A DNA stretch of 64,000 nucleotides, from positions 4,908 to 68,907 of the forward strand of contig JAGBLL010000110.1 in NCBI GenBank assembly GCA_017635465.1, written 5' to 3'. This DNA is from Bacilli bacterium. GTDB lineage: Bacteria; Bacillota_I; Bacilli_A; RFN20; CAG-826. Positions 24,621 through 45,753 of this stretch are shown here, in pieces. The notes below the pieces were generated by a model that saw only the letters and a program-made list of their open reading frames with translations, ran no database searches and was not told the origin of the DNA. Numbering within the stretch: the first letter of the stretch is position 1; each line of letters begins with the position of its first letter. The position numbers and the translations under genes are program-made.

Positions 24621-24697
24621 GCGCTTGTAGCTCAGCTGGATAGAGCGCTTCCCTCCTAAGGAAGAAGTCGGGCGTTCAAATCGTCTCAAGCGCGCCA
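24621..24697 (+). tRNA. tRNA-Arg (anticodon CCU)
   Basis: Cloverleaf folded by hand. Acceptor GCGCTTG/CAAGCGC, anticodon stem CTTCC/GGAAG with loop CTCCTAA, encoded CCA. Confidence 0.9.
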
Positions 24698-24706
24698 AAA
24701 TATTTG

Positions 24707-24732
24707 AAAGGTGATTATTCACCTTTTTCTTT
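24707..24732 (+). terminator. intrinsic terminator after galE-tRNA-Arg
   Basis: aaaggtga-ttat-tcaccttt followed by ttc tttt. Confidence 0.65.
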
Positions 24733-24758
24733 TATTCTCAATTATTAATAAAAAATTG

Positions 24759-24786
24759 TTGTCTAATTAACGAATTATTGTATAAT
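24759..24786 (+). promoter_or_regulatory. putative sigma-A promoter for tRNA-Ala
   Basis: TTGTCT (24759-24764), 16-nt spacer, TATAAT (24781-24786). About 15 nt upstream of the tRNA 5' end. Confidence 0.5.
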
Positions 24787-24800
24787 AAATATCGCACTGT

Positions 24801-24876
24801 GGGTCCGTAGCTCACCTGGGAGAGCGCCTCCATGGCATGGAGGAGGTAGCGAGTTCGATCCTCGTCGGATCCACCA
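24801..24876 (+). tRNA. tRNA-Ala (anticodon GGC)
   Basis: Acceptor GGGTCCG/CGGATCC with the G3:U70 identity pair. Anticodon loop ATGGCAT, encoded CCA. Confidence 0.9.
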
Positions 24877-24920: not shown

Positions 24921-24950
24921 AAAATCCTGAGTTGAATCAGGATTTTTTCT
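24921..24950. terminator. bidirectional terminator (TCCTGA/TCAGGA hairpin family)
   Basis: aaaatcctga-gttgaa-tcaggatttt. The right arm contains the stop codon of the minus-strand gene 24937..25416. Confidence 0.65.
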
Positions 24951-25416
24951 TTCTAGAAGATTGTTTGTAGTCGAGATATTTCAAAAACACTTCTTCAACA
25001 TCTGCGTCGCTTATCTCATAATCATCAGGCTTATGGCAAATCCACGCATAATACCAAGTGATGGCTCTAACAAATGAGTATATAACATCTTCAATGTTGC
25101 AATGTTCTGTTCTAACTGGCAAATATATTATAGGAAGCTTGTCTTGCTTATTAAAATTCGGATACTCATTAATACTTTCATAATGGAATAAATAATAAGC
25201 ATGTTTATGATTCCTTTGTAATAGAAAATGATTGTAACAAAAGTCCACCTGCAATTCTACAGGGATGGGATAGTTTACTTGAACCCATTTCATAAAAGCA
25301 CGAATCTCTCTTTTTGTTGATCGTGATATTCTTTCATCAAACCAACAATCAAAACCAGGCTTAATGCCTTTTCCGATGCTTAGTTTGACTTGTTTTGCTT
25401 CTTCCCAAACATTCAT
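24937..25416 (-). CDS. hypothetical protein (159 aa), first gene of the accessory block
   Basis: Clean ORF with no motif I can place. Trp/Tyr/His-rich soluble protein. Confidence 0.45.
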   Translation of the reverse strand: MNVWEEAKQVKLSIGKGIKPGFDCWFDERISRSTKREIRAFMKWVQVNYPIPVELQVDFCYNHFLLQRNHKHAYYLFHYESINEYPNFNKQDKLPIIYLPVRTEHCNIEDVIYSFVRAITWYYAWICHKPDDYEISDADVEEVFLKYLDYKQSSRKKKS

Positions 25417-25670: not shown

Positions 25671-25946
25671 ATGACACAAGCGTTACCAAAGGTACTACCA
25701 GTTAATGAACTTAAGAATACAGCCAATATAATGAAAACATGCCAAGAAAGCCCAGTTCCTATTGTTATTACTAGAAACGGTTATGGAGAAGCTGTCATGA
25801 TGAGCATTGCTCTTTATGAAGAATTGTTCGCTAAGGTTCAAGCAGCCACTTTAATCAATGAAGGAATTGATGAAATCGAAAAAGGCGCTAAAGGTATGGA
25901 CGGTGATGAATTCTTTAATCGCATGAACAAAAAGTATGGAAAGTAA
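25671..25946 (+). CDS. type II antitoxin, Phd/YefM family
   Basis: 91 aa with the PVPIVITRNGYGEAVMMS..YEEL pattern. Overlaps the toxin start by 11 nt. Confidence 0.8.
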   Translation: MTQALPKVLPVNELKNTANIMKTCQESPVPIVITRNGYGEAVMMSIALYEELFAKVQAATLINEGIDEIEKGAKGMDGDEFFNRMNKKYGK

Positions 25947-26247
25947 ATATACTTTAAATATTTATCCTTCTACACAACTAGATTTGGATAAAATCTTTGC
26001 TTACATTTATAACGATTTATCAAATCCAAAAGCTGCCATTGATTTAATTGATACTTTTCGTATATCTTTTAATAATCTACGTTATTTTCCTGAGAGCAAT
26101 CCATTAGTTAATAACGAATATGTAAAAGATAAGTCGCTGCGTAAGCTTCTTGTTAAAAACTACATTGCCTTTTATCGTATTAGAGGCTACGAAATTCAAA
26201 TCGTCAGAGTTCTTTATGGAATGAGCAATTATCAAATGCTTCTCTAG
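25936..26247 (+). CDS. type II toxin, RelE/ParE family
   Basis: 103 aa. ParE-like architecture (..FPESNP..., IAFYRI...I.IVRVLYG). Confidence 0.8.
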   Translation: MESKYTLNIYPSTQLDLDKIFAYIYNDLSNPKAAIDLIDTFRISFNNLRYFPESNPLVNNEYVKDKSLRKLLVKNYIAFYRIRGYEIQIVRVLYGMSNYQMLL

Positions 26248-26464: not shown

Positions 26465-26746
26465 ATGAAAGAAGAACTATTAAAAGGTTTAACTAAAGAA
26501 CAAATCGAAAAAGTTAAAGCCTGTAAAAGCCAAGAAGAAATTTTAGATTTAGCAAGAAAAGAAGGCATTGAACTCACCGATGAACAATTAGAAGCGGCCA
26601 ATGGTGGTTTTTGTTCAGTTGATGAAACAAGATGCCCAAACTGTGGTAGTAAATATGTTAATAGACTTGGCGTTTATGATGGCTGGGCCTATGACTGTCG
26701 AGAATGCTATTATCATTGGATCGTCAAAACAAACACCGATAATTAA
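26465..26746 (+). CDS. Nif11-like double-glycine leader peptide with Cys-rich (Zn-ribbon-like) core
   Basis: SD aaaggag at 26449-26455, ATG at 26465. Leader MKEELLKGLTKEQIEKVKACKSQEEILDLARKEGIELTDEQLEAANGG. The 45-aa core carries CPNC...CREC plus one extra Cys. Confidence 0.7.
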   Translation: MKEELLKGLTKEQIEKVKACKSQEEILDLARKEGIELTDEQLEAANGGFCSVDETRCPNCGSKYVNRLGVYDGWAYDCRECYYHWIVKTNTDN

Positions 26747-26833
26747 TTATTTTGATTCATTAAAAACTTATAGAGTTCAAGACTCTATCTAGTTTGATGG
26801 TGGCTAATCTTTATAGATATTAAATTGCAAATT

Positions 26834-26860
26834 AATCCTGAATAGCATCAGGATTTTTTT
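26834..26860 (+). terminator. intrinsic terminator (TCCTGA/TCAGGA hairpin family)
   Basis: aatcctga-atagca-tcaggatt followed by ttttt. Confidence 0.7.
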
Positions 26861-26921
26861 GTATAATTGTTCTAAGAAAAAATATTTTTATACATTTTTG
26901 ATTTTATAACCGTCTTTACTT

Positions 26922-27437
26922 ATGAAAGCTGCTTTCAAAATGAATGTGACCATCAAGACTGCCAAACTGTTTCTTCAAGGCGACGAAGAAGCAATCTCTA
27001 GTGTATATCGAAGTTATCGCTCATTGCTTTACTTCATTATCGCTACTTATCTAAATCAAAAAGAAGATTGCGATGACGTCTACCAAAATGTATTTGTAAA
27101 AATACTCGATAGAAGAAATGGAGTTAAAGATCCTTCTTCCTTGCATTCCTACTTGTGCACAATGGCGAAAAACGAAGCGATTGATTACGCTAAAAAACGC
27201 TCTCGCGAACATGGTAGTGATGTCTTAGAAGATATGTGCGCGGATAACCAAGTAACGCAATTAGATTACTTCCTTCCTTACGATTTAACTAAGGAAGAGA
27301 AAATGATTGTCGGTTATCGGTTAACATTCGGTCTATCTTGGCAAGAAATTAATGAGCTAACAGGTATACCACTTGGCACTCTCAAATACCGTTATTCTCA
27401 AGCTATTGATAAAGTCAAAAGGAGTTTAAAAAGATGA
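26922..27437 (+). CDS. ECF-like sigma-70 family RNA polymerase sigma factor
   Basis: Region 2 (DDVYQNVFVKIL...MAKNEAIDYAKKR) and region 4 HTH (LSWQEINELTGIPLGTLKYRYSQA) only. The start could instead be the ATG at 26940. Confidence 0.85.
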   Translation: MKAAFKMNVTIKTAKLFLQGDEEAISSVYRSYRSLLYFIIATYLNQKEDCDDVYQNVFVKILDRRNGVKDPSSLHSYLCTMAKNEAIDYAKKRSREHGSDVLEDMCADNQVTQLDYFLPYDLTKEEKMIVGYRLTFGLSWQEINELTGIPLGTLKYRYSQAIDKVKRSLKR

Positions 27438-29275
27438 AAAGAATTGAAAAAGAAATCAAAAAGAACAGTACGAAACTTATTGAATCATCATTACCAGAAA
27501 TCAGTTCTTTAGATAATATTCCTACAAAAGTTAAAAAGAATAATCGTCTACCTTTATTCTTTATTCCTGCTGGAGCTCTTGCTTTAGCAGCAGTGGCAAT
27601 CATGATTCCTTTACTCATGAAACAAGTAGTGCCAGCGCAGTTACCATCCTCACCAGCATCAAATAATTACTCTTCAATCAATTATTACAATAGCAATAAC
27701 GTTGTTAATAGCAATAATACTGGTGACAGTGTTCCTCAAAATCCTCAAACTAATCACACATACCATTTTGATTTTGCTAATTACAAACCAACATTTAGTG
27801 ATTTTAACGAAATCGCATATTATTCCTATATTGCTTATCAAGGCAATCAAAACGTTTCACCACAAAAGCACAATAAAGCAATGCTTAACGATATAGCGGA
27901 AGAGCAAGAAGAGCATGTTAGTTCATCTTATATTGATGCTTATGGAAGAAAACATTATCCGCTTCCTCTAACAGATGAATACACATTCTCTAACTTTGTC
28001 TTTTTTGAATTCGATTCTGAAGGCTGTCATTTCTTAGAAGAAAGAATAGGCAATGGACACATCCATGGCCTAGCTCTTAAATTTAGCTATATGAATGAAA
28101 ATGTGCCAATCTTACAAAGTGAAGAAATGCTCATATTGAAAAACGAAGGTCGCTATTATTCTTGCTTATGCAATGGTGGTGGTAATAACGGACTTGACAA
28201 TAGAATGTTTATTCAATTCTCTGCTCATAAGGTAATTGAAGGTTTTGATATTGTTAAAGACGCCACCAATAAAAGATATATCGAATTAGGCTTTGAAACT
28301 TTTAACGACTACGAATCACTAGATAGTATCACTATTGAAGGATCATCATATCCTATTATTGCGGAATCAGTTCATTATGATAACGTATCAGTTACCTGTT
28401 CTTTCGAGGATTTAAAGGAACAATTAGAACTAAATCCTGAATATAAAGCCGCTGATGGCTATGGTGGTGTTGATGTCCTTGTTTATGATGCTGAGCACCC
28501 AGAGAGTAACAGCTTCACATTAGATGAATTTGAAGGCACATTCAGTGTTAATGGAAACACAATTACTTTGAACAATGAGGAAGTTGTTTCCATTAATGGA
28601 ATTACAAAAGTTTATGCTTCTGAAATCAATAAAGATTCACATCGTGATTTAGTCTTTGAAACAGTTAATAATACAATCCGCTCTATCAATGTCTTTGATA
28701 TTTATAATAAGAAACTAATCTATCAAGAATCCAATAATGCCATCGATAGATATGGCGATCATTATCTTGACATGATGAATGGCCGTTTAGTTATTAAATT
28801 ACTTGAATATGGCATGACTGATGATCGCTATTTGATTGATTATGGTTACTTCTCATACTATGGAATTAAACAGCTCACTATTGTTTATCAAAACTATTTT
28901 GAACTCACAGAAATGAGAGCCCACCGTGTCCTTGAAAATGATAATGAAACGCTAGTGCCATTTATCGATACTCATTATCGTTTCAATAGCAACACTCCAT
29001 ATATTCTTGAAATTAAGATGAATAAATATCCTGGTAATAAAAATCCTAATTATCCAAGCATTGGTGATCATCAAATTGTTTGTAAACCATTTGCGGAAGT
29101 TGAAGATATGCCAAATATGTCTCCTGAATTTACTTTCTTATCAATGGAAAATGGTATCTACCGTTATCAAATTAAGTTCCAAGAAAAAGGATATTCATAT
29201 TACACATTCTCTTTCTACCGTTTCAGCTTTGATTTAAGAGTGGCAGTGGATGAACCTGTTACGGTTGAACAGTAA
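27434..29275 (+). CDS. putative anti-sigma / sensor membrane protein with a large novel extracytoplasmic domain
   Basis: ATGA overlap with the sigma stop. About 38-aa cytoplasmic N-terminus, one TM helix (about 27551-27620), an N/S-rich linker, then about 500 aa with no motif I recognise. Confidence 0.45.
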   Translation: MKRIEKEIKKNSTKLIESSLPEISSLDNIPTKVKKNNRLPLFFIPAGALALAAVAIMIPLLMKQVVPAQLPSSPASNNYSSINYYNSNNVVNSNNTGDSVPQNPQTNHTYHFDFANYKPTFSDFNEIAYYSYIAYQGNQNVSPQKHNKAMLNDIAEEQEEHVSSSYIDAYGRKHYPLPLTDEYTFSNFVFFEFDSEGCHFLEERIGNGHIHGLALKFSYMNENVPILQSEEMLILKNEGRYYSCLCNGGGNNGLDNRMFIQFSAHKVIEGFDIVKDATNKRYIELGFETFNDYESLDSITIEGSSYPIIAESVHYDNVSVTCSFEDLKEQLELNPEYKAADGYGGVDVLVYDAEHPESNSFTLDEFEGTFSVNGNTITLNNEEVVSINGITKVYASEINKDSHRDLVFETVNNTIRSINVFDIYNKKLIYQESNNAIDRYGDHYLDMMNGRLVIKLLEYGMTDDRYLIDYGYFSYYGIKQLTIVYQNYFELTEMRAHRVLENDNETLVPFIDTHYRFNSNTPYILEIKMNKYPGNKNPNYPSIGDHQIVCKPFAEVEDMPNMSPEFTFLSMENGIYRYQIKFQEKGYSYYTFSFYRFSFDLRVAVDEPVTVEQ

Positions 29276-29428
29276 GTAACTATACAGAATTATAAGGGCA
29301 AATTTCCGCCCCTTTTGTTTATGTAAAGAATAAACAAGTTAGTTTTACTAAATATCGATATATCAATTAAGAAAAAATACTTTTTTCACTATGAAATATA
29401 CTTATGCATGCGCTAAAATAATTTTAAA

Positions 29429-30019
29429 GTGAATTTGAAAGTTTATTTACTGGATTATCGAGCCCTCCCTTTATCTTTTCTTATGGATTCTAAATATCTA
29501 TCAGAACTAGAAAAGATATCATTTCAAAAATATAAAAACGAAAACGTTAAAAAAGAAAAAATAGTGTCCGCTATTTTGAAAAATAAATATATTGGTGATT
29601 ACCATTTCAACGAATACGGTAAACCAATAAGCAATAATAAATATTTCAATATCAGCCATAGTGATGGTTATATTGCTTTAGTTATTGATCAAGTGCCTGT
29701 GGGCATTGATATTGAAAATATTAGAAATGCTGAAGAAGATTTAAGAAACTATATTTCTAATGACGAAGAAAAGAAATACATCCATGATGATGAATCTTTC
29801 TTTGAAGTATGGACTAATAAAGAAGCATTAGTAAAGGCTAATGGAAATGGTATTAATCAAAAGATTAAAACTATTCAATCATTACCACTTAACGCTATTA
29901 GAACATACAACAACAAAACATATTTTAATAAAACAATCAAATATCAGAATTTAGTCATCACTGTATCAAGGGCAAGTAGTGATGATTTTAATATTAATAT
30001 CATGGAGGAGTATATTTAA
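29429..30019 (+). CDS. Sfp-type 4'-phosphopantetheinyl transferase
   Basis: FNISHSDGY, GIDIE and W.NKEALVKA motifs. GTG (29429) or TTG (29435) start. Stop lies 1 nt before the NRPS ATG. Confidence 0.85.
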   Translation: MNLKVYLLDYRALPLSFLMDSKYLSELEKISFQKYKNENVKKEKIVSAILKNKYIGDYHFNEYGKPISNNKYFNISHSDGYIALVIDQVPVGIDIENIRNAEEDLRNYISNDEEKKYIHDDESFFEVWTNKEALVKANGNGINQKIKTIQSLPLNAIRTYNNKTYFNKTIKYQNLVITVSRASSDDFNINIMEEYI

Positions 30020-30020
30020 T

Positions 30021-33000
30021 ATGGTCAAAACATACCCTTTAAGTAAGAGTGAAGAAGGTATTTATATCTCTTCATTAGCGGGTGGCGACGCTTATAATCT
30101 CGCTCATTTAGTGTCATTAGGGAGAGACGTTACAAAAGAGCAAGTTGAAGCTGCTTTAAACAAAGTGGTGGAAGCCCATCCTTATATTTTTACTGTTCTT
30201 TCTAATGATGAAAACGGTAACGTTGTTAAAAGCATTAAACAACAAAAGATTGTTCTTGAATGTGAAGAAGTTAAAGAACTTAACATCGTTTCTAAACCAT
30301 ATCAATTATTGGATTCACCTTTATATCGCTTCAAACTTTATAAAGTGAAAGATGAATATGTTTTCTATTTTGATTTTTATCATCTCATCATGGATGGTAC
30401 ATCTATTAAAGTATTCATTGATGATTTCTTTTCTTCGCTTGAAGGTAAAAAATTAATCAAAGAACAAAGTGACGCGAATGAATATGCATTAAAGGAACAA
30501 AAAGATTTAGCGAAACCAATTTATCAAGAATGCAAAGACTACTATGAAAAACTAGTGGGCGATGTGGAAACTGATTCCTCCCTCGTCGAAGATAAAAAAG
30601 ACGAAACAGTTTCATATCAATCGTTCAAACAAAAATTATCAATTAAAAATAAACAGATTAAAGAAATCACTAATAAATTAGGCCTTAAAACATCTACTTA
30701 TTTCTTAGGTGCTTTCTCCTATTTATTAATGAAATTTAGCATGGATACTGCTTCTTTATTCTTAACAGTTAATAACGCTAGAACAAAAGAAGTAGCGAGA
30801 AGCTTTGGTAGCTTTGTTAAAACATATCCTTTATATGTTAATTTCGAAAATATCGATAATGTTCCTGACTTATTAAAATTGGTGAATGAAGAGAATATCG
30901 AAAACGTTAAACATAATACATATCCATATTCCTCATTAGTGAAAGACTTTGGTGTTTCTTCTGATGTCTTATTCGCTTATCAAGGTGACTATTTCTATAA
31001 TGGTTCATATAACGGCAAGCAAATTACTGTTGAACAACTTGATAGAAAAGATGGCAAAGAAAAACTCGCAATTGAATGTCACCGTTTAGGCGATGAATTC
31101 TTACTCTGGGTTGAATACCGCAGTGATATTTATTATGAAAGCACAATCCGTCATTTCATTAAGTTATTTGATATCGTCTTAAATGAATTCCTAGCGTTAG
31201 GAAAATTAGATGATATTAACTTTGTTAATAAAGAAGATTTAGAATTGATGGATTCTTTCAATATCACTGATCCTAAATATCTTGATACTTCAAAAACAAT
31301 ACTTGATGACTTTGAAGATTGCGTAAAGAAATTCCCAAATAATTACGCAGTTGTCTTTAAAGATAAAAAATACACATATAAAGAGGTGGATGAAATTACC
31401 ACAAGAATCGCTAATGAATTAATTAAGCATGGTGCGGGAAGAGAGAAAGTTGTCTCTATCTTAATTCATAAATCTGAATATGTTGTCCTCGCTTCTTTAG
31501 CGGTCATTAAATCTGGTTCTGCTTATCAACCACTTGATCCAACATATCCAGAAGATCGATTAAATTTCATGGTCAAAGACTCATCCGCGATTATCTTAAT
31601 TAGAGATGATGATTTAGGCGACCTAATCCATGAATTTAAAGGACATGAAATATTAACAAGTTCCTTATTATCTTTAAAAGATGATACCCCAATTAAAACT
31701 ATACCAGAATCTAAAGACTTATTCATTATGCTTTATACATCTGGCTCCACTGGTTTACCAAAAGGTGTCATGCTTGAACATGGCAATATCCATGCTTTCT
31801 GTATCTATCATAGAGAAATTCAAGAAATCGATGAAAATTCACATTGCAGTGCCTATGCTTCATATGGTTTTGACGCGGATATGATGGACTTATATCCCGC
31901 TTTAACAAGTGGTGCAACAGTTTATATCATTCCTGATGAAATGCGTTTAAACCTCGTTGAACTTGGTGAATATTTTAACGCTAATAACATCACTCACTCA
32001 TTTATTACTACCCAAGTCGGTAGACAATTCGCTAGTGAAATTGAATGTTCGTCACTCAAATATTTCGCTGTCGGTGGCGAAAAGCTCGTTCCAATTGAAC
32101 CTCCAAAAGGTTATAGATTCTTTAATATCTATGGTCCAACCGAAGGTACAGTTTATTGCACTAGCCAAGAAGTTGATAAATTATATTACCGTATTCCAAT
32201 TGGTAAACCGTTACCAACATACAAAATGTATGTTTTAGATAAGAATAAAAAGAGATTACCATTCTTATGTAATGGTGAACTCTATATCTCTGGTCCACAA
32301 GTGGCAAGAGGTTACTTAAATAGAGAAAAAGAAAATAAAGAAGCTTTCTTAACTAACCCATTCACCAAAGAAAAAGGCTACACCAATTTCTATAAAACAG
32401 GTGATATCGTGAGAATGCTTCCAGATGGCACAATTGACTTTATCGGCCGTAAAGATGGACAAGTCAAGATTAGAGGCTTCCGTATTGAATTATCAGAAGT
32501 CGAAGGTGTCATTAGAGAATTCCCTGGCATTAAAGACGCGACAATTAAGGATTTCACCGATCCAAGTGGTGTGAAATATATCGTTGCTTATATCGTTAGT
32601 GACAAACAAATCAATGTTGAAGAGCTAAATCAATATATCTTATCAAAGAAACCGCCTTATATGGTTCCTGCTTACACAATGCAAATTGATAAGATTCCAC
32701 TTAACCAAAACCAAAAAGTTAATAAACGCGCTTTACCACAAGTCGAACTTAAAGCGGAAGAAATCGTCCCACCAGAAGGTGAAGATGAACAAATTATCTT
32801 TGATATCTTAAAAGATGTTTTAGGTCATGACCAATTCGGTGTCACAAGTGATATTTATAACGTTGGTTTAACTTCCGTTTCTTCAATTAGATTTAGTATT
32901 CTCTTATCAAAGAAATTCAATAAACCTGTGGAAAACGAAGACCTAAAGTCACATCCAACAATCCGCTCCTTAGCGGCGTTCTTAAACGCTAAAGAAGGCG

Positions 33001-36000
33001 ACAAGGTATATGATTTACGTGAAGAATATCCAATTAGTAAGACACAAGAAGGTGTCTTCATTGAATGCGCTTCTAAAGCGGATTCCACAACTTATAACAT
33101 TCCATATTTATTTAAACTTGATAAACGCATCGACTTAAATAAATTAAAAGAAGCTTTAATCAAAGCGCTTGATAACCATCCATATCTCAAGACCACATTA
33201 AAGATGAATGAAGACGGCGATATTCTCGCTCTTAGAAAAGAAACAGAAAGTGTTGTCTCCATCATTAAAGAAGATATCGTTAAAGAGAAATTAATCCGTC
33301 CATTTAAACTATTGGATGCTCCTTTATATCGCATTGAAATATATGAAGGTAAAGATAATTATCTCTATTTAGATTTCCATCACATCATCTGTGACGGCAC
33401 TAGTGAAGCAATCTTCTTATCTGACTTAAACAAAGTGTTCAAAGGTGAACAATTAACTAAAGAAGAATTCACTGGCTTTGAAGTGGCTTTAAAAGAAAAA
33501 GAAGACTTACAAAGCGATAAACTTCCTAAAGCTAAAGAATATTATCACAAAGTGCTTAAGGACATCGATGGTGAATATATACCTAAAAAAGACTTAAAAG
33601 TCGCTAAAGAGCATAGACTCGCTTCTATCGATTACGCTTTGAAATTAGACAATAACAAAGTTAACGAATACGTTAAATCTAATAAACTCACTAATAATGC
33701 TTTATTTAACTTTGCATTTGGTTATACATTATCTAAATTCATTTATCGTAAAGATGCTTTATATGTGACTATTTATAATGGTCGAAAATCTTCTAAATTA
33801 TTTAATACCACATCGATGCTAGTTAAAACTTTCCCAGTTTATCTATCTTATGAAGAAGATGATGAAATCATTAAGAAAGTGAGCTTCATCAAAGATGAAT
33901 TAAGTGGCTTAGAAGAACATGATATCTATTCATTCGCGGATATCGTTAAAGATTATGATATATCCGCGGATGTAATGTTTGCCTATCAAGGTGATGATTT
34001 CTCATTCAAAGAAATCGGTGGTTATCCAGTCGAATCAATCTTGCTTGAAAGTGATACCACTAAAACACCATTTGGTTTAGATATCTTCCTAGAAGATGGT
34101 GTCTTTAGAGCCCACTATGAATACGATATCGCTATTTATAATGAGAATAGTATCGCTGCATTTAATAGATTATTTGAACTCGTTTTAAATGAAATCTTAG
34201 TTAAAAAGCAAATCAAAGACATCAATACTCTTCCAGAAGAAGATAAGAAATTATACGCCATCACAAACGATACTGACGTTGAAATTCCTAACGATGTTAC
34301 TGTAAATAAGATATTTGAAAAACAAGTCGAATTACATAAAGATAAAGTCGCAGTTATCGATGTCTGTAGCCAATTTACATATCAAGAATTAAATGCATTA
34401 GCAAACAAAGTAGCTCACACGTTAATCGATAATGGTGTGACTAAGAACCAAACAGTGGTGATGTTAATGCCTAGATTAAAAGAAGCTTATGCGGTGAGAC
34501 AAGGTATTGTTAAATCCGGTGGAGCCTTCTTACCAATCGATCCAAAATATCCAGATGAACGTGTTGGCTATATTATTGGAAATTCTCAAACTCAATACGT
34601 CATTACCACCAAGAAAGTCTTAGAAGAAAAAGAACAATTATTAAAAGACGCGAAAGTTAAAGTGTTCTTAATCGAAGATATCGCTAAATCAAATAAAGCG
34701 GACAATCCAAACGTTAAGATTAGTCAAAAAGATTTAGCGTATGTCATCTATACATCAGGTAGTACAGGCAAACCAAAAGGCGTGATGATTTCACACCGCA
34801 ATATCCTTAACTACGTTTTAGATGGCAACAATTTAACAACCGCTGAATATCGTTATATTGGGGAAGAATGTGTGAGTTGCTCATTTGCTTCATTATCATT
34901 CGATGCTTCTTTGCAAGAAGAATTCGTCCCATTAACTCATGGTTATACTGTTGTTATCGCTAGTGAAGAAGAAATTGAAAATCCATTACTTCTCGCTCAA
35001 ACACTCAAAAAGCATGGTGTAAATATCATGTTTATGACACCATCATTTGTCTCTAACTTATTAGATATTCCACAGTTCGTTGAAGCATTACGTAATTTCA
35101 AAGTCCTAGATATGGGCGCGGAAGCAGTGCCAATCGAATTATGTCAAAAACTTAGAGGTTTAGGCGTTAACGCTCAAATCAATAATGGGTATGGCCCAAC
35201 TGAAACAACAATTACATCAACATATAGTACTGTTAAAGATGAATACATGACCATTGGTCGACCAGTTGGTAACACTAAAGCTTATATCTTAGATAAAGCG
35301 GGTCATATTTTACCAATCAACGCTATTGGTGATTTAACTCTCGCTGGTGAATCTGTTGGTATGGGATATTTAGGTAATGAAGAAAAAACCAAACAAGTAT
35401 TCATTGAATTAAACGGTTTACGTGCCTATAGAACTGGTGACTTAGCAAGAATTAATGGCGATGGTAACATCGAATTCTTTGGTCGACTTGATAACCAAGT
35501 TAAATTAAGAGGTTTGCGTGTTGAACTTGATGAAATTGAAAAGGTTATCAACACCTATCCAGGCATGTCCACAAGTATCGTTATTGTGAAAAACGCCCCA
35601 GAAGGTGATTACTTAGTGGCCTATTTCGTTGCTAGCAAAGAAATTGATAAAGATGATTTAACCGCTCATATTTCTAAATCATTAACGCCATATATGATTC
35701 CAAAGGCGATGATGCAATTAGATAAATTACCGTTAACAGCGAATGGCAAAGTCGATAAGAAAAACTTGCCAGCCATTCAAGTTAACGAAACTAAAAAAGA
35801 AATCAAAGAAGCAAGTAACGAACTTGAAAAGAAACTCGTTGCCTTATTCCAAAAAGCATTAGCTAATCCAAATGTCGGTGTGGATGATGACTTCTTTGAA
35901 CTCGGTGGTACATCATTAAGTGTTTCTAAGATTGCGATGCTCGCATTAAATGAAAACTTACCGATCGCTTATGGTGATGTCTTTGAGTATCCAACTGTCT

Positions 36001-37238
36001 TACAACTTGAAGAACACATCAATTCTTTACAAGGTAATGCCAAAAAACAAGATGAAAAGAAAGAAGAATATGAATTCGCTTCACTTAAACATAACGTTGT
36101 GGAAGAAGTTGATGACATCAAGATTGATTTCGAATATAAGAAAGTCTTACTCGCTGGCGCTACTGGCTTCTTAGGTATCCACTTATTATATGAATTAATT
36201 CAACAAAAGAATCATGTCGTGGCCTTAGTTAGAGGTGGTAGCTTATCCGCTAAAGATCGCTTGTTAGCGATGTTAACATATTATTTTGATTCACCATTCG
36301 AAGAAGAAATTGAACAATATGTTGAAGTCGTTGACGCTGATGTCACTAATAATGATTTATATGAAAAATTAAAAGATTATGATTTCAATATCATCATTAA
36401 CTCCGCGGCGATTGTTAAACACTTCGCTAACGATGACATCATTGAAAGAGTGAATGTCGGTGGTGTGAAGAATCTCATCGAAATTGCTAAAGCAAAGAAA
36501 GCGAGAATTATTCAAATCTCAACACTTTCTGTCGCTGGTGAAAACATCGATAATAAGTTCCCATCTTCTTTCAAAATCAAAGAAAACATGCTCGACTTTG
36601 GTCAAGATGTCTCTAATAAATATGTCCATTCTAAATTCAACGGAGAAAAAGCTATCTTAGAAGCTATTGATAAGGATGGCGTGGACGCCAAGATCATCCG
36701 TGTTGGTAACTTAATGAGTAGACAAAGAGATGGTGAATTCCAGGCTAACTCCATTACTAACGGCTTTATGCGTGACTTAAAAGGTTATGTTACGCTCCAT
36801 GAATTCCCAGTTAATTCAATGGATGGCACAGTTGACTTCTCACCAATCGATGAAGTCGCTAAGACAATTATCTTGTTATCCAAGACACCAAGTAAATTTA
36901 CAGTCTTCCATTCCGCTAACTCACATATGGTGGAAATGGGTGATATTATCTATGTCTTAAACGAACTTGGCTTTGATATTAAAGTTGTCCCAGATAACGA
37001 ATTCCTTGAAGGTATGAAACGCATGATGATGGATGACACTAAGAGTATGCTTGTTTCTTCCTTAATTTCATATTCCAGTAGCGACATGCATACACATCAA
37101 TTTATTGGCTCTGATAATGAATTTACAAATAAAGCGTTGTATCATTTAGCGTATAAATGGCCAATTACTGACTATGAATATCTAAAGAACGCCATCATCT
37201 CACTTCAAACACTAGACTTCTTTGAAAGGAACGACTAA
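30021..37238 (+). CDS. bimodular nonribosomal peptide synthetase, C-A-T-C-A-T-R (terminal thioester reductase)
   Basis: Start at ATG 30021 with SD ggaggag at 30004-30010.
- C1: YHLIMDG (30378-30398).
- A1: YTSGSTGLPKG (31734-31766), NIYGPTE, GRKDGQVKIRGFRIEL.
- T1: GLTS, Ser codon 32873-32875.
- C2: HHIICDG (33378-33398).
- A2: YTSGSTGKPKG (34749-34781), NGYGPTE, GRLDNQVKLRGLRVEL.
- T2: GGTS, Ser codon 35913-35915.
- R: GATGFLG (36156-36176) and YVHSK (36621-36635). Confidence 0.95.
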   Translation: MVKTYPLSKSEEGIYISSLAGGDAYNLAHLVSLGRDVTKEQVEAALNKVVEAHPYIFTVLSNDENGNVVKSIKQQKIVLECEEVKELNIVSKPYQLLDSPLYRFKLYKVKDEYVFYFDFYHLIMDGTSIKVFIDDFFSSLEGKKLIKEQSDANEYALKEQKDLAKPIYQECKDYYEKLVGDVETDSSLVEDKKDETVSYQSFKQKLSIKNKQIKEITNKLGLKTSTYFLGAFSYLLMKFSMDTASLFLTVNNARTKEVARSFGSFVKTYPLYVNFENIDNVPDLLKLVNEENIENVKHNTYPYSSLVKDFGVSSDVLFAYQGDYFYNGSYNGKQITVEQLDRKDGKEKLAIECHRLGDEFLLWVEYRSDIYYESTIRHFIKLFDIVLNEFLALGKLDDINFVNKEDLELMDSFNITDPKYLDTSKTILDDFEDCVKKFPNNYAVVFKDKKYTYKEVDEITTRIANELIKHGAGREKVVSILIHKSEYVVLASLAVIKSGSAYQPLDPTYPEDRLNFMVKDSSAIILIRDDDLGDLIHEFKGHEILTSSLLSLKDDTPIKTIPESKDLFIMLYTSGSTGLPKGVMLEHGNIHAFCIYHREIQEIDENSHCSAYASYGFDADMMDLYPALTSGATVYIIPDEMRLNLVELGEYFNANNITHSFITTQVGRQFASEIECSSLKYFAVGGEKLVPIEPPKGYRFFNIYGPTEGTVYCTSQEVDKLYYRIPIGKPLPTYKMYVLDKNKKRLPFLCNGELYISGPQVARGYLNREKENKEAFLTNPFTKEKGYTNFYKTGDIVRMLPDGTIDFIGRKDGQVKIRGFRIELSEVEGVIREFPGIKDATIKDFTDPSGVKYIVAYIVSDKQINVEELNQYILSKKPPYMVPAYTMQIDKIPLNQNQKVNKRALPQVELKAEEIVPPEGEDEQIIFDILKDVLGHDQFGVTSDIYNVGLTSVSSIRFSILLSKKFNKPVENEDLKSHPTIRSLAAFLNAKEGDKVYDLREEYPISKTQEGVFIECASKADSTTYNIPYLFKLDKRIDLNKLKEALIKALDNHPYLKTTLKMNEDGDILALRKETESVVSIIKEDIVKEKLIRPFKLLDAPLYRIEIYEGKDNYLYLDFHHIICDGTSEAIFLSDLNKVFKGEQLTKEEFTGFEVALKEKEDLQSDKLPKAKEYYHKVLKDIDGEYIPKKDLKVAKEHRLASIDYALKLDNNKVNEYVKSNKLTNNALFNFAFGYTLSKFIYRKDALYVTIYNGRKSSKLFNTTSMLVKTFPVYLSYEEDDEIIKKVSFIKDELSGLEEHDIYSFADIVKDYDISADVMFAYQGDDFSFKEIGGYPVESILLESDTTKTPFGLDIFLEDGVFRAHYEYDIAIYNENSIAAFNRLFELVLNEILVKKQIKDINTLPEEDKKLYAITNDTDVEIPNDVTVNKIFEKQVELHKDKVAVIDVCSQFTYQELNALANKVAHTLIDNGVTKNQTVVMLMPRLKEAYAVRQGIVKSGGAFLPIDPKYPDERVGYIIGNSQTQYVITTKKVLEEKEQLLKDAKVKVFLIEDIAKSNKADNPNVKISQKDLAYVIYTSGSTGKPKGVMISHRNILNYVLDGNNLTTAEYRYIGEECVSCSFASLSFDASLQEEFVPLTHGYTVVIASEEEIENPLLLAQTLKKHGVNIMFMTPSFVSNLLDIPQFVEALRNFKVLDMGAEAVPIELCQKLRGLGVNAQINNGYGPTETTITSTYSTVKDEYMTIGRPVGNTKAYILDKAGHILPINAIGDLTLAGESVGMGYLGNEEKTKQVFIELNGLRAYRTGDLARINGDGNIEFFGRLDNQVKLRGLRVELDEIEKVINTYPGMSTSIVIVKNAPEGDYLVAYFVASKEIDKDDLTAHISKSLTPYMIPKAMMQLDKLPLTANGKVDKKNLPAIQVNETKKEIKEASNELEKKLVALFQKALANPNVGVDDDFFELGGTSLSVSKIAMLALNENLPIAYGDVFEYPTVLQLEEHINSLQGNAKKQDEKKEEYEFASLKHNVVEEVDDIKIDFEYKKVLLAGATGFLGIHLLYELIQQKNHVVALVRGGSLSAKDRLLAMLTYYFDSPFEEEIEQYVEVVDADVTNNDLYEKLKDYDFNIIINSAAIVKHFANDDIIERVNVGGVKNLIEIAKAKKARIIQISTLSVAGENIDNKFPSSFKIKENMLDFGQDVSNKYVHSKFNGEKAILEAIDKDGVDAKIIRVGNLMSRQRDGEFQANSITNGFMRDLKGYVTLHEFPVNSMDGTVDFSPIDEVAKTIILLSKTPSKFTVFHSANSHMVEMGDIIYVLNELGFDIKVVPDNEFLEGMKRMMMDDTKSMLVSSLISYSSSDMHTHQFIGSDNEFTNKALYHLAYKWPITDYEYLKNAIISLQTLDFFERND

Positions 37239-37240
37239 TT

Positions 37241-38983
37241 GTGGAGAGAAATAGTAAACTAGTTAACCGTAAATTCATTCATTATCTCATTCCGTCGATA
37301 TTGATGATTTTTGCGATGCAATTTTCTTCCTTACTTGATGGTATCTTAATTGGTAACTTGATTTCTGGCGAAGCTCTTGCGGCGACATCTTTAGTTATGC
37401 CAGTACTATATATCGTCCAAGCTCCTGGTTTTGCTTTAGGAGTAGGGGGATCAATTGTCGTTGCTAATAAATTAGGTAAAAGAGATATCGAAGGGGCAAA
37501 AAAGACGTTCTCTATATCAATTATTTTAGGTGTTGGAATATCTATATTATTTGCCGCGATATCATTCTTTGTTTCCGCACCATTAGCAAAGCTATTTGGT
37601 GAAGCATCATATGAATTATCTTATCCATATATCTATATGTATTTATTGACCGATCCAATTATTACTTTAGCTTTGCTTCTTGGTTCCTTTATGGCGGTTG
37701 ATAATAACCCAAAATTATCATCAATATTCTTTATTATTTCTAATGTCGCGAAAGTCGGCTTAGAGTTCATCTTTATTAAATTATTTAATTGGGGAATGTA
37801 TGGCGCCGCTTTATCTACCGGAGCGGGTTTCGTCGTCGCGTTTGTCGCTTTACCTTTCTACATTAAAAACGATAAGCGCATGCTTGGCTTAACTTTCAAG
37901 GTTAAAGGCACGAAGATATTTGAAATTATTAAATCTTCATCAACATCAGGTTTGAATCTTATTTTAACCGCGATTCAAATGCTGATTGTTAATATCTTTT
38001 TAGGCAAGTTAGTCACTAATCCAGTCGACTTATTAGCCTTTGGTTTAATCGCTAATATTGTCTTCGTCTTTGACTTATTCTGTGGTGGTATCTTAAATGT
38101 TATTCCTAATATTGTGGGTATCTTTTATGGTGAAAAAGATTATTATTCACTGAGATCAGTTACTAGAAAAATATTCTGGATTAATATTATTGTGGCCGCG
38201 GTTATTACCGCAGTTATCGCTGCCTTACCAAATGTCTATTCATTTATCTTTGGCTATACTGAACAAACAGATATGAGTTATATTGCACTCTTAATTAGAA
38301 TCTATCTCATCTCATTATTACCATCAGAAATTAGTAAATTCTCGATGAATTACTATCCATCCATTGATAAGAATCTACCTTCTTTAATTACTGTTTTCTT
38401 AAGAGAAGCTGTCTTAGTGTTGCCATTAACACTAGTGTTATTATTCACTAATGGTGTTTTAGGTTATTGCACTGCCTACGCTATTACGGAAGTAGCGACA
38501 GTCTTAATTACTTATATATTTATCCTTATATACAATAAAAAGAAAAATACATATTCCATCTTCATGTTTGAAAGAGGAGATGTTGAATCTTTCGATACTT
38601 CTTTAGATAACAACATTAATAATGCTTCTATTGTTTCTGAACAACTCACTAACTACGCTCGTAGTATTGGTGTGGCGGAAAGAGAAAGCCAAATCGTTGG
38701 TCTAGCCGCAGAAGAAATAGTGGGTAATATCATCACATATGGTTATAAGCATAAACATAAAAACTATATCGATATTTCATTAAGGAAAATTAACGATGTT
38801 CTCTTATTAAGAATTAGAGATGATGGTATGCCATTTGACCCAACTAAATATGAATTTGATAATGATGAGAATTATTCCACAAGTGGCATACAGTTAATTA
38901 ATAAATTAACTGATAAGATGACTTATATGCGTGTATTAAGTCTTAATAACACGATATTTGAAATCAATATCAGGGGGAACTAG
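37241..38983 (+). CDS. MATE-family efflux transporter fused to a C-terminal SpoIIAB/RsbW-like GHKL ATPase domain
   Basis: GTG start 2 nt after the NRPS stop. About 440 aa with 12 TM helices (MATE-like). From about 38575 the tail has an N-box EEIVGNIITYGY, a G1-like RDDGMPFDP and a G2-like SGIQLI. Confidence 0.78.
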   Translation: MERNSKLVNRKFIHYLIPSILMIFAMQFSSLLDGILIGNLISGEALAATSLVMPVLYIVQAPGFALGVGGSIVVANKLGKRDIEGAKKTFSISIILGVGISILFAAISFFVSAPLAKLFGEASYELSYPYIYMYLLTDPIITLALLLGSFMAVDNNPKLSSIFFIISNVAKVGLEFIFIKLFNWGMYGAALSTGAGFVVAFVALPFYIKNDKRMLGLTFKVKGTKIFEIIKSSSTSGLNLILTAIQMLIVNIFLGKLVTNPVDLLAFGLIANIVFVFDLFCGGILNVIPNIVGIFYGEKDYYSLRSVTRKIFWINIIVAAVITAVIAALPNVYSFIFGYTEQTDMSYIALLIRIYLISLLPSEISKFSMNYYPSIDKNLPSLITVFLREAVLVLPLTLVLLFTNGVLGYCTAYAITEVATVLITYIFILIYNKKKNTYSIFMFERGDVESFDTSLDNNINNASIVSEQLTNYARSIGVAERESQIVGLAAEEIVGNIITYGYKHKHKNYIDISLRKINDVLLLRIRDDGMPFDPTKYEFDNDENYSTSGIQLINKLTDKMTYMRVLSLNNTIFEINIRGN

Positions 38984-38997: not shown

Positions 38998-39026
38998 AGT
39001 CCTGAAATACAATCAGGACTTTATTT
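38998..39026 (+). terminator. intrinsic terminator closing the NRPS operon (TCCTGA/TCAGGA family)
   Basis: agtcctga-aatacaa-tcaggact followed by ttatttta. Confidence 0.55.
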
Positions 39027-39269: not shown

Positions 39270-41165
39270 ATGAAAAAGAGATTAATTCCTTTAGTGGCAT
39301 TAAGCGCGCTTTTAATGGGCGGTTTAACAACCCTTGCAGCATGTAACACTAAAGGCCAATCAGGTGAATCACAAACATCTGCAAAAACAGGTTCACAATT
39401 CAAAGTGTCATATGACCAAAGCGAAGAATATACAGTCGCTGGTTTAAAAGAATCATATGCCGCTGGTGAAAAAGTCACCTTCACTGTCACAGTTAATGAC
39501 AAAACAAAAGAAATTTCCGCTGTCAGAGCGGGTGGTACAAAACTTACTCCTGACGCAAATGGACAATATTCATTTGATATGCCAGAAGAAGACACACGTT
39601 TAAGAATCACATTAAGTGATATTCACGTTGCCAAATTAACTGCTTCCTATACAGGTAGCTTAGTCCAAGGACAAACATTAACAATCACCACAAAGATTGA
39701 TGATGCTAATAACGACACATTCACAGTCACCGCTAAAACGGGTGCTAGCTTAGTCCAAATCACAAATCACCAAGTTAAATTACTCAATGCTGGTAATGTC
39801 GTCTTAGAAGTCAGCGCGACAAAAGATGGTGCAACATTAAAAGATGAATTATCGTTCACCATTATTGAAAGTGAAGCAAGTTTAGGTACAGATATTGCTT
39901 ACCATAACTATCAATTTAAAAATGGTGCAGAATCATTAGCAAATGATAACCGTGGCACATTAATTTATTGGTTTGGTGATGGTGGTAGTGTCTCCTCATT
40001 CAAATATGAAAACGGTAAATTCGACGTTCAATACACAATGGGTTGGGCATTCTATGGTGTGCAATTCTTCTACTCATTACCATATGCAAAAGCAGGTGAC
40101 ACATATAAACTCAGATGGGAAGTCAATTCCGATGCTGATGGTATCATCACCATTAACAGTACAAGAGTCAACTTAAAGAAAGGTGATAACATCGTTGGTG
40201 TTGATATCACTCAAGGTGCTCAAGCTACTGTTTCTATCCAATTAGGTTATATTGAAAATGAAGAACAACATCCATTTACCGATGGTGCTCACTTAACATT
40301 TAAACCTTTCCGTCTTTATGACACAAATAAAGACCATAAATATCACAGAGTTTCATTCACCTCTGGTAATGAAGCCCTCAAAACAATTTATGTTTTAGAT
40401 GGTCAAAAAGTTAAAGCTCCAGAAGTCAAAGCTCCAGAAGGTAAGATTTTTGCTGGTTTCTATAACGGCGAAACTAAGTTTGATGAAAACGTCGCTCCAA
40501 CAGCGGATGTCACTTACGCTGCTAAGATTATCGATAAATCAGAAGCAGAAACCGTTCTTGTCCAATTAAAAATTGGTTCTAAAGTTTTAGCGAAAATTGA
40601 TGTTGTTAAAGGCGATAAAGTCGTTATTCCAAGTGGCTTAGATTATGGCTTTGGTCAAAAATTAAAAGGTCTTTATACCGATGCCGCTTTCACAACAGCT
40701 TTTAGCCTCGATACTCCAGTTCAAAGTGACTTAGACTTATACGTTAAGACACAAATCGCTTTTGAATCTACATATGTCCACGATGTGGGTGGCATTCCAG
40801 CGGAATGGATCACATATAATGATGATGGTTCTATCACATTGAAGTTCAAAGGCTGGGGTCACTCTGATAAGTGGCACATCCAAGCTAACTTCACAGATAG
40901 TATGATTAGAGGCCAAGCAGGCGAATTCTATCAAATTTCCTTCACATACTCCATCAACCAAGAAGGCGCGGGCGCACAAGTCTATGATGGTAACACCTTA
41001 GACAATACTGGCTTAGATGTCGGTTCTAATAAAGAAGCTACTTTAACATATGAAGGTGGCCCACACGTTGGTGACTTCAAGTTAACATTTGAATTTGGTA
41101 GCATCGACTTAGACGCTGATGTTGAATTCACATTACACAAAATTAGCATCGCAAAAGTTTCTTAA
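39270..41165 (+). CDS. surface lipoprotein with Ig-like, Flg_new-like repeat and CBM-like modules (putative glycan-binding protein)
   Basis: Lipobox LAAC. Big_2-like segment. Two segments resemble Listeria-Bacteroides repeats (..GFYNGETKFDENV.., ..LKGLYTDAAFTTAF..LDLYVK). Two Trp/aromatic-rich beta-sandwich-like regions. Confidence 0.6.
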   Translation: MKKRLIPLVALSALLMGGLTTLAACNTKGQSGESQTSAKTGSQFKVSYDQSEEYTVAGLKESYAAGEKVTFTVTVNDKTKEISAVRAGGTKLTPDANGQYSFDMPEEDTRLRITLSDIHVAKLTASYTGSLVQGQTLTITTKIDDANNDTFTVTAKTGASLVQITNHQVKLLNAGNVVLEVSATKDGATLKDELSFTIIESEASLGTDIAYHNYQFKNGAESLANDNRGTLIYWFGDGGSVSSFKYENGKFDVQYTMGWAFYGVQFFYSLPYAKAGDTYKLRWEVNSDADGIITINSTRVNLKKGDNIVGVDITQGAQATVSIQLGYIENEEQHPFTDGAHLTFKPFRLYDTNKDHKYHRVSFTSGNEALKTIYVLDGQKVKAPEVKAPEGKIFAGFYNGETKFDENVAPTADVTYAAKIIDKSEAETVLVQLKIGSKVLAKIDVVKGDKVVIPSGLDYGFGQKLKGLYTDAAFTTAFSLDTPVQSDLDLYVKTQIAFESTYVHDVGGIPAEWITYNDDGSITLKFKGWGHSDKWHIQANFTDSMIRGQAGEFYQISFTYSINQEGAGAQVYDGNTLDNTGLDVGSNKEATLTYEGGPHVGDFKLTFEFGSIDLDADVEFTLHKISIAKVS

Positions 41166-41179
41166 TTAACTTATTTAAA

Positions 41180-41206
41180 AGGGGGAGTTCTCGCTCCCCC
41201 TCCTTT
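41180..41206 (+). terminator. GC-rich hairpin plus T-tract abutting the GH16 start codon
   Basis: agggggag-ttctcg-ctccccct then cttttt. The ATG of the next gene is at 41209. Confidence 0.6.
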
Positions 41207-41208
41207 TT

Positions 41209-42162: not shown

Positions 42163-42164
42163 TT

Positions 42165-43481: not shown

Positions 43482-43494
43482 ATAGGAGGCATTT

Positions 43495-45666: not shown

Positions 45667-45684
45667 TCATAAAGGAGAACTTTT

Positions 45685-45753
45685 ATGAAAAAAGTTGGAA
45701 AAATAATTAATTTTGCGGGTGCAGGTTTAGTCGGTGTTACGTTAACATCTTAG
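45685..45753 (+). pseudogene. orphaned signal-anchor fragment of the GH3 gene (frameshifted)
   Basis: SD aaaggag, ATG at 45685. MKKVGKIINFAGAGLVGVTLTS then TAG. The hydrophobic helix continues in the -1 frame (..NILALGVFKKTLQDF..) into the GH3 ORF. Confidence 0.65.

Follow-up and report, generated by a model that had tools for sequence, protein, structure and literature searches.

Nonribosomal peptide synthetase (NRPS) clusters of the dipeptide-aldehyde type in gut Firmicutes make protease-inhibiting metabolites. To our knowledge, how the producers control and export such reactive products is not known. Among partner-switching systems, SiaABCD has a non-sigma output and Rv1364c is a PP2C–RsbW–STAS fusion. 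The dipeptide-aldehyde NRPS clusters of gut Clostridia are reportedly the subject of Guo et al. 2017 (Cell 168:517). Clusters of this type (ruminopeptin, Ruminococcus bromii), as summarized in PMC8210680 and PMC12327764, are the background for the locus analysed here, which occupies positions 26465–38983 of a 64,000-nt stretch from a Bacilli bacterium (assembly GCA_017635465.1, contig JAGBLL010000110.1). We refer to the whole 64-kb stretch, which has a G+C content of about 33%, as the window. The locus contains a gene for a GG-leader peptide, a pair of genes for an extracytoplasmic function (ECF) sigma factor and a membrane protein, and an NRPS operon with its own exporter. A first-pass annotation had read these units as one integrated system. 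We found instead that the interval is likely to hold three independent units brought together by chance (the ECF sigma pair of the backbone, an orphan peptide and an aldehyde-type NRPS cluster) and not one circuit, and that the tail of the exporter leads to an exporter-anchored partner switch, which is an undescribed variant of a known regulatory scheme.

The NRPS operon consists of three genes:

29429–30019, + strand: Sfp-type 4'-phosphopantetheinyl transferase (PPTase), 196 aa (ACPS, 1.2e-10; best NCBIfam family AusB, 2e-22)
30021–37238, + strand: bimodular NRPS, 2405 aa, with the domain order C-A-T-C-A-T-R (condensation, adenylation, thiolation, terminal reductase; Condensation twice, AMP-binding twice, PP-binding twice, NAD_binding_4 at residues 2044–2283)
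37241–38983, + strand: multidrug and toxic compound extrusion (MATE) exporter fused to a SpoIIAB/RsbW-like GHKL domain, here MATE::GHKL (MatE, 2.7e-30; HATPase_c_2, 2.8e-14)

The reported gaps of 1 nt between PPTase and NRPS and 2 nt between NRPS and MATE::GHKL were confirmed, the domain calls of the first-pass annotation were correct, and the three genes behave as a single unit. The NRPS, which ends in an NAD(P)H reductase domain, shows GATGFLG and YxxxK (YVHSK) motifs, and a ribosome-binding site, GGAGGAG, lies 10 nt before the ATG at 30021. The best NCBIfam family for the NRPS was AusA (1074 bits, cut-off 2500), and AusB scored 79.5 bits on the PPTase (cut-off 225). Because both scores lie below the equivalog cut-offs, the cluster is a relative of AusA/AusB and not an orthologue. 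Like AusAB and the gut clusters, it has a bimodular NRPS ending in a reductase, a dedicated Sfp-type PPTase and a low-G+C gut or rumen Firmicute host, and it shares an N-terminal condensation domain with N-acylated gut variants (PMC8210680). Unlike AusAB (aureusimine), it scores far below the AusA/AusB cut-offs, has the PPTase gene first and uses MATE::GHKL as its exporter. We assign the NRPS to the known gut dipeptide-aldehyde family as a new member. The PPTase would prime its two thiolation domains. From the precedent of AusA and the clusters of gut Clostridia, we expect the NRPS to assemble an (N-acyl) dipeptide that its reductase domain would free as a reactive aldehyde, and we infer that the MATE protein exports this product.

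To place the locus among its relatives, we used 68 loci from other genomes, which were retrieved with the NRPS as query and then searched with all window proteins. The nearest relatives of the window were rumen metagenome-assembled genomes (MAGs) labelled Erysipelotrichaceae or Bacilli. One of these, RUG12224 (L002; comparison loci carry the prefix L), is the same species as the window, with an NRPS identity of 98%. The NRPS was found in 55 of the 68 loci, MATE::GHKL in 47 and the PPTase in 41, and the PPTase gene lay directly upstream of the NRPS gene in 41 loci. The three genes co-occur down to about 36% NRPS identity (Lachnospiraceae, Ruminococcus), with a gene order that sometimes differs. 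We also examined a reverse set of 37 MATE::GHKL metagenome loci, retrieved with MATE::GHKL as query (alignment A4). The A4 query patterns fell in the MATE part of the protein, and L111–L153, which are unrelated marine MATE genes, were excluded. Every true MATE::GHKL fusion locus with upstream DNA had an NRPS gene directly upstream.

The exporter tail had been called anti-sigma-like, and this description held. In an AlphaFold2 (AF2) model of MATE::GHKL (pLDDT 76), 12 transmembrane (TM) helices (residues 1 to ~435) are followed by an alpha/beta domain at residues 448–576 (nt ~38582–38968). A single-sequence phmmer search of the tail against the PDB was uninformative. By contrast, a profile of 25 tails searched against solved structures identified RsbW (6m36, 2.3e-5) and SpoIIAB (1th8 and 1l0o, ~6e-4) as the best relatives. 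Foldseek with the AF2 model returned MATE transporters, and the tail domain aligned with SpoIIAB 1l0o_A (E = 7e-6, target TM-score 0.74). In the ATP site of the tail, the N-box residues E/E/N and the D-D-G of the G1 motif are conserved, with DDGxPF replacing DxGxG. The tail subfamily comprises 177 representative clusters at E ≤ 1e-10. Of the best 150 tail relatives, 65 are full-length proteins, and every one of these is a MATE fusion. The full-length fusion is thus present in at least 65 protein clusters, each defined at 50% identity.

In relatives, MATE::GHKL is followed by two conserved genes:

L001 18969–21391 (also L008, L048 and ~30 other loci): gene for a STAS protein and gene for a membrane PP2C::HATPase_c_2 protein, directly after MATE::GHKL

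The STAS protein, of about 98 aa, matches its Pfam family at 3e-14 and is named by NCBIfam as an anti-sigma factor antagonist. The membrane protein, of about 710 aa, combines a SpoIIE-type PP2C domain (6e-40) with a HATPase_c_2 domain of its own at the C terminus. In 31 of 48 loci, no more than 60 nt separated the STAS gene from the stop codon of MATE::GHKL. Flanks of at least 3 kb on both sides were available at 33 loci, of which 27 had STAS, 22 had both STAS and PP2C, and six had neither (the window, L002, L022, L026, L039 and L053). The serines of the STAS motif YISSAGLR were kept in 36–37 of 37 sequences, and the metal-binding aspartates of the PP2C domain in 31 of 31. A Pfam scan of 98 non-redundant flanking proteins of 140–320 aa found no sigma-70 domain except in L002's own sigma factor. 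This gene content indicates that GHKL, STAS and PP2C form an exporter-attached partner-switching set in which no sigma factor is evident as the output. We also observed distant NRPS homologues of 3000–4090 aa in L022, L026, L038, L046, L051, L053, L056, L060, L062 and L063 (Lachnospiraceae, Clostridia), a length that implies extra domains or a module. At these loci, MATE::GHKL lies upstream of the NRPS gene, and STAS just before MATE::GHKL.

The first-pass annotation had proposed that the tail might sequester a sigma factor and had not been able to assign the architecture to a described scheme. Neither point agrees with the relatives, in which the conserved partners of the tail are STAS and PP2C, no sigma-70-family gene is a recurrent neighbour, and the combination of tail, STAS and PP2C is that of partner switching, a described scheme. 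Most likely, the role of the tail is to modulate export or to report on it, and not to sequester a sigma factor. The set resembles RsbW–RsbV–RsbU and SpoIIAB–SpoIIAA–SpoIIE in the HATPase_c_2 tail and, in relatives, in the adjacent STAS protein with its conserved serine and the SpoIIE-family PP2C. It differs from the RsbW and SpoIIAB modules in that the domain is fused to a 12-TM MATE protein, has no conserved sigma neighbour and has a divergent ATP lid, and in that the window has no STAS or PP2C. The PP2C proteins of relatives had SiaA of the Pseudomonas aeruginosa SiaABCD system as their best NCBIfam match, and this match was weak (55.7 bits, cut-off 700). The likeness to SiaABCD is one of logic and not of family, namely a partner switch acting on a non-sigma effector, and the presumed effector here is a transporter rather than a diguanylate cyclase. 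The PP2C::GHKL fusions of relatives also recall Rv1364c of Mycobacterium tuberculosis, and its structure (PDB 3ke6) was among the matches of the tail profile.

Another possible explanation for the tail is that it serves as a structural or ATP-binding accessory of the exporter, in oligomerization, self-protection or energizing, and that STAS and PP2C regulate something else. Such a role would suit the atypical G1 and G2 motifs of the ATP lid and the fact that 6 of the 33 loci with flanks of at least 3 kb on each side retain the tail but have no STAS or PP2C next to it. It would leave unexplained why, at 31 of 48 loci, the STAS gene directly adjoins or overlaps the stop codon of MATE::GHKL and why the STAS Ser-Ser motif and the PP2C catalytic aspartates are invariant, and it sits poorly with RsbW and SpoIIAB as the nearest relatives in both sequence and fold. 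We consider an accessory role unlikely and favour a partner switch.

STAS and PP2C genes were not found anywhere in the 64-kb window. For the tail of the window protein, dN/dS was 0.063 in the comparison with L002 and 0.079 in that with L001. These values, close to those of the transporter part, indicate strong purifying selection on the tail despite the missing adjacent partners. Because the tail is under such selection with no STAS or PP2C nearby, the missing partners of the window species are probably encoded elsewhere in the genome. Literature searches returned no description of a MATE–GHKL fusion or of partner switching in these NRPS clusters, and a search for pyrazinone together with anti-sigma likewise gave nothing relevant. 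A survey of rumen biosynthetic gene clusters counts 5,346 NRPS clusters. Term searches of this survey found no MATE, aldehyde, dipeptide, pyrazinone or Erysipelotrichaceae.

Upstream of the NRPS operon, separated from it by 153 nt and on the same strand, lies the sigma pair:

26922–27437, + strand: ECF-type sigma factor, 171 aa (Sigma70_r2, 4e-13; r4_2 below cut-off; TIGR02937, 63.8 bits, above the cut-off of 42.9)
27434–29275, + strand: 613-aa single-pass membrane protein, putative anti-sigma factor or sensor, with a 4-nt overlap with the sigma stop codon

The description of this pair as an ECF-like sigma factor with a large-ectodomain partner was upheld, as the sigma factor passed TIGR02937 and the overlapping 613-aa open reading frame (ORF) was predicted to encode one TM helix and an all-beta ectodomain. 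In the AF2 model of the 613-aa protein (pLDDT 74), an N-terminal cytoplasmic helix is followed by a TM helix at residues ~41–62, a disordered linker and a confident all-beta ectodomain (residues ~170–605). The protein matched no Pfam or NCBIfam family, including no recognized anti-sigma domain, and Foldseek of the model against the PDB found no meaningful fold match (TM-scores ≤0.24). Its family consists of 49 homologue clusters, all unannotated. The N-terminal 27 residues are nearly invariant over 46 homologues (residues 8–27 noted). In the relatives L069–L073, the sigma factor is 75–78% identical, compared with 45–59% for its partner. The pair is like ECF sigma/single-pass anti-sigma pairs in having regions r2 and r4, a coupled membrane partner with a short conserved cytoplasmic N terminus, and a CGTC motif upstream. 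It is unlike them in that no anti-sigma domain was matched in the 613-aa partner, the ectodomain has no fold match in the PDB, and the window contains no second copy of the motif. On these features, an anti-sigma or sensor role of the 613-aa protein is plausible.

We found that the sigma pair does not travel with the NRPS operon. Among the 68 NRPS loci, the sigma factor and the 613-aa protein were found only in the conspecific L002 (phmmer, E < 10, all ORFs), so that the gene set of the first-pass annotation is not co-conserved as a whole, and none of the 37 MATE::GHKL metagenome loci had the sigma factor, the 613-aa protein or the peptide. In five contigs that contain the 613-aa family, the sigma pair comes directly after pcrA–ligA–gatCAB–epimerase (after a tRNA gene in L073) and is followed by genes for an acyltransferase and an iron repressor and by feoAB. 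No NRPS, PPTase, MATE or peptide gene was found near the pair in these five relatives. The window has the same backbone genes, pcrA–ligA–gatCAB–epimerase, at 16.2–24.6 kb, tRNA genes at 24621–24873 and feoB at 51.7 kb. Because the sigma pair occupies this same position in the window and, with no NRPS, in the five relatives, it is a backbone unit.

These results bear on the circuit that had been proposed for the locus, in which a cue, possibly the peptide, would act through the 613-aa sensor to free the ECF sigma factor and turn on the NRPS operon, with the GHKL tail as a second sigma-sequestering protein that provides feedback from the exporter. Support for it can be seen in the adjacency and shared orientation of the units, the translational coupling of the sigma factor to its membrane partner, the SpoIIAB/RsbW fold of the tail, and the fact that neither the window nor L002 has the usual STAS and PP2C. 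The distribution of the genes argues the other way. The sigma pair is missing from 66 of 68 NRPS loci and from all 37 metagenome loci, it exists as an NRPS-less backbone unit in five relatives, the tail family occurs in dozens of genomes with no sigma neighbour, and the peptide does not stand beside the sigma pair in relatives. In addition, anti-sigma factors with a HATPase_c_2 domain characteristically pair with SigB/SigF-type sigma factors and not with ECF sigma factors. Shared orientation, which had been taken as a sign of a system, is uninformative here because nearly every ORF of at least 150 aa at 15.6–54 kb of the window is on the + strand (the exceptions are 24937–25416 and one nested inside feoB).

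Promoter evidence also failed to connect the sigma factor to the NRPS operon. Two sites were relevant:

26887–26916, + strand: conserved motif TTTAT[AC]C[AG]TTT-N13-CGTCTT, with its end 5 nt from the start codon of the downstream sigma gene
29391–29419, + strand: sigma-70-type promoter-like site ATGAAA-17-TAAAAT, 9 nt before the GTG start of the PPTase

The motif upstream of the sigma gene is ungapped and invariant in register in five relatives, with the extended form ...CGTCTT[TA]ACTTATG, and is probably an autoregulated ECF-type promoter that gives a near-leaderless mRNA. It has a single zero-mismatch pattern match in the whole window. A position weight matrix (PWM) of the motif scored 42.3 bits at 26885 and 11.4 at the next-best site in the window. 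Ahead of the PPTase the best score was −7.3, and ahead of the peptide it was −5.0. The upstream region of the PPTase contained no CGTC, and the pattern and PWM searches of the window gave no convincing second copy of the motif. The claim that the sigma factor drives the NRPS operon is thus supported neither by co-conservation nor by a copy of the motif upstream of the PPTase, and the peptide, too, has no such motif upstream. We consider the proposed circuit very improbable.

In relatives that have no nearby ECF sigma gene, TATAAT or TAAAAT is found 7–10 nt before the PPTase start, and transcription of the NRPS operon appears to start from a −10 element of the housekeeping type just upstream of the PPTase gene. 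An Rfam scan of the window at gathering thresholds found three tRNAs only, with no riboswitch or leader RNA before the NRPS operon. Both the sigma and the PPTase genes have −10-like elements 5–10 nt before their starts (26887–26921 and 29414–29431), with no Shine–Dalgarno sequence between, which suggests that leaderless or near-leaderless mRNAs occur in this lineage. Taken in silico, the promoter data lend no support to sigma control of the NRPS operon and would leave read-through across the hairpin at 29.3 kb as the sole remaining route.

We next consider the hairpins that separate the units:

26834–26855, + strand: intrinsic-terminator hairpin, AATCCTGA-loop-TCAGGATT plus T-run (−15.9 kcal/mol, z = −5.8)
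29296–29319, + strand: weak terminator-like hairpin, GGGC...GCCC plus T-run, between the sigma and NRPS operons (−7 kcal/mol, z = −1.36)
38998–39020, + strand: intrinsic terminator closing the NRPS operon, AGTCCTGA-loop-TCAGGACT plus T-run (−11 kcal/mol, z = −3.8)

The units had been described as separated by terminators of one hairpin family. This is true of the hairpins at 26834–26855 and 38998–39020, which share a stem, and not of the third boundary (~29296–29319), where the hairpin is weak and lies outside the TCCTGA...TCAGGA family. The TCCTGA-loop-TCAGGA hairpin has four copies in the window (24925–24942, 26836–26853, 39000–39018 and 51119–51134), compared with 0.03 expected, and the exact pattern has four copies in 1.77 Mb of related loci. 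The four window copies mark places where backbone genes (tRNA, sigma, feo) meet accessory blocks (toxin–antitoxin plus peptide; NRPS; glycoside hydrolase (GH)/GGDEF). The same stem is found upstream of the sigma gene in L069 and L073, relatives that have no peptide. Because copies stand outside the claimed system and before the sigma gene of peptide-less relatives, this hairpin is a local terminator type and is not specific to a system.

One way in which the sigma factor might still reach the NRPS genes is that the operon lost STAS and PP2C and landed 3' of the sigma operon, so that ECF-driven transcripts cross the terminator at 29.3 kb and place the NRPS under indirect envelope-stress or cue control. 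The contrast between this weak hairpin and the strong ones at 26.8 and 39.0 kb would permit such read-through, as would the shared strand and the 153-nt gap, and in the window and L002 the loss of STAS–PP2C coincides with the juxtaposition. Yet the PPTase has its own −10-like element at a position conserved in relatives, and L002 has a better stem, GGGGC/GCCCC, at the place equivalent to 29.3 kb. We regard this rewiring by read-through as quite unlikely.

The third unit of the interval is the peptide:

26465–26746, + strand: orphan GG-leader (Nif11-like) precursor peptide, 93 aa, with the leader at residues 1–48 and a zinc-ribbon-like core, CPNC...CREC

A GG-leader peptide had been predicted here, and the ORF is indeed present, with GG at residues 47–48 at the end of the leader and a Cys-rich core that gave a sub-threshold zinc-finger match. 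The leader scored below the cut-offs of both leader models (19.4 bits against a cut-off of 23.8 for Pfam Nif11, and 21.5 bits against 32.3 for TIGR03798). No radical-SAM, C39-ABC or two-component partner for the peptide was found in the 64-kb window, where the only similarity detected by tblastn, at 1.9 kb and at the 3' end, was of a generic ABC ATPase kind. A segment for an ABC-transporter ATPase (63692–63943, − strand) is cut by the 3' edge of the window and shares 45% identity with the ATPase portion of C39-ABC exporters from relatives. The stretch bounded by the tRNA genes and by the hairpin that, in relatives, stands ahead of the sigma gene holds the peptide, a 159-aa gene and a toxin–antitoxin pair:

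25671–26247 of the window: Phd/YefM antitoxin and ParE toxin genes, with an 11-nt overlap, between the tRNA genes and the peptide

The five sigma-pair relatives have neither the peptide next to the sigma gene nor the Phd/ParE toxin–antitoxin, and by its gene content the peptide region looks like part of a small accessory insert. A ParE homologue is present elsewhere in L071.

Relatives of the peptide near NRPS genes are usually found inside a cassette that consists of a LytS-type kinase, a response regulator, the peptide, a radical-SAM/SPASM protein, a small protein and C39-ABC exporters:

L023 1083–9831, L003 19405–27162, L005 269–8391 and L021: peptide/radical-SAM/C39-ABC cassette near the NRPS module, with two C39-ABC exporters, sometimes followed by an extra STAS gene
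L048 21578–24908: second partner-switching set adjoining the NRPS module, with a 97-aa STAS, a 384-aa STAS::APH-type kinase and a 620-aa PP2C::GHKL protein, then radical-SAM/SPASM

In L003, L005, L021 and L023, homologous peptides are accompanied by radical-SAM/SPASM and C39-ABC genes. Some element of the cassette was found near the NRPS in 19 of 50 loci of at least 15 kb, arranged upstream, downstream or split around the NRPS, and its response regulator in 12 of the 50. The cassette also holds extra STAS genes and, in L048, a STAS::kinase fusion and a second PP2C::GHKL gene. A partner-switching set like that of L048 (cluster c40) is also present in L025 and L046. The window peptide is like the Nif11-type GG-leader precursors of ribosomally synthesized and post-translationally modified peptides (RiPPs) with C39 ABC export in its leader and GG motif, and relatives L003, L005, L021 and L023 add the radical-SAM/SPASM and C39-ABC genes of such systems. 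It is unlike them in that its leader falls below the model cut-offs, no maturase or exporter accompanies it in the 64-kb window, and its core resembles a small zinc ribbon. Of the idea that the peptide is linked to the NRPS, what remains is that related peptides adjoin the NRPS module in several relatives, which is weak support; the radical-SAM, C39-ABC and two-component genes that accompany those peptides are not in the window. The cassette offers a lead, namely that peptide signalling may be connected to the NRPS module in this family, and it is no evidence for a sigma-centred model in the window.

Downstream of the NRPS operon, at 39270–51107, the window encodes a 631-aa surface-type protein, GH16, GH5, GH3, a GGDEF protein and an S33 hydrolase. 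The four genes directly 3' of the operon (631-aa, GH16, GH5 and 723-aa) occur, among the NRPS loci, in L002 only. The NRPS cluster and the GH16/GH5/GH3 block sit between the sigma pair and feoAB, and the backbone-bearing relatives have neither block.

Consistent with these comparisons, we favour the reading of the interval as three independent units. The first would be the sigma pair in its backbone order, pcrA–ligA–gatCAB–epimerase–tRNA–sigma–613aa ... feoAB, as in rumen Bacilli/Erysipelotrichaceae, under its own promoter. The second would be the NRPS cluster, which would make and export the aldehyde as outlined above, and in which the exporter tail would take part in a partner switch with STAS, through its invariant Ser-Ser, and with a membrane PP2C bearing a second GHKL domain. 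The third would be the peptide, as an orphan RiPP-type precursor in a small accessory insert with Phd/ParE between the tRNA genes and the sigma gene.

Several observations weigh against this reading. All of the comparison loci are MAG or metagenome contigs, and the absence of STAS and PP2C is established for the visible 64 kb of the genome only. In the tail, the second glycine of G1 is replaced by proline and G2 is reduced to (S/T)SGI, and because these ATP-lid motifs are atypical, kinase activity of the tail is uncertain. The weak hairpin at 29.3 kb leaves possible read-through from the sigma promoter into the NRPS operon. Among the loci examined, only the window and L002 both have no STAS–PP2C and stand beside a sigma/anti-sigma pair, and this coincidence of STAS–PP2C loss with the sigma neighbourhood could be a lineage-specific rewiring. 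Finally, peptides with the same leader lie within 10 kb of the NRPS in L003, L005, L015, L021 and L023, several with a CPxCG...CxxC core, and given this recurrence of same-family peptides near the NRPS module, the proximity of the peptide may not be pure chance.

A broader proposal, which we put forward tentatively, is that MATE::GHKL, STAS and the membrane PP2C::GHKL protein form a transporter-anchored circuit that gates or reports aldehyde export. In some genomes this circuit might be wired to the peptide/radical-SAM/C39-ABC/two-component cassette with its extra STAS, PP2C and STAS::kinase genes. The window lineage might then be a rewired variant that has lost the adjacent STAS–PP2C genes and kept the tail and an orphan peptide, downstream of an ECF sigma operon.

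The locus also carries a caution, in that the adjacency and co-orientation of regulators and a biosynthetic cluster hinted at a circuit that comparative genomics did not support. The part worth following is the exporter-anchored partner switch, and for this a relative that has all of the genes, such as L001, would be preferable. This NRPS family has an obligate companion in the fusion of MATE with a SpoIIAB/RsbW-like domain, and genomes from rumen and gut usually have STAS and PP2C genes after the fusion gene. This pattern, of which we found no description, points to post-translational, partner-switching control of a small-molecule exporter.

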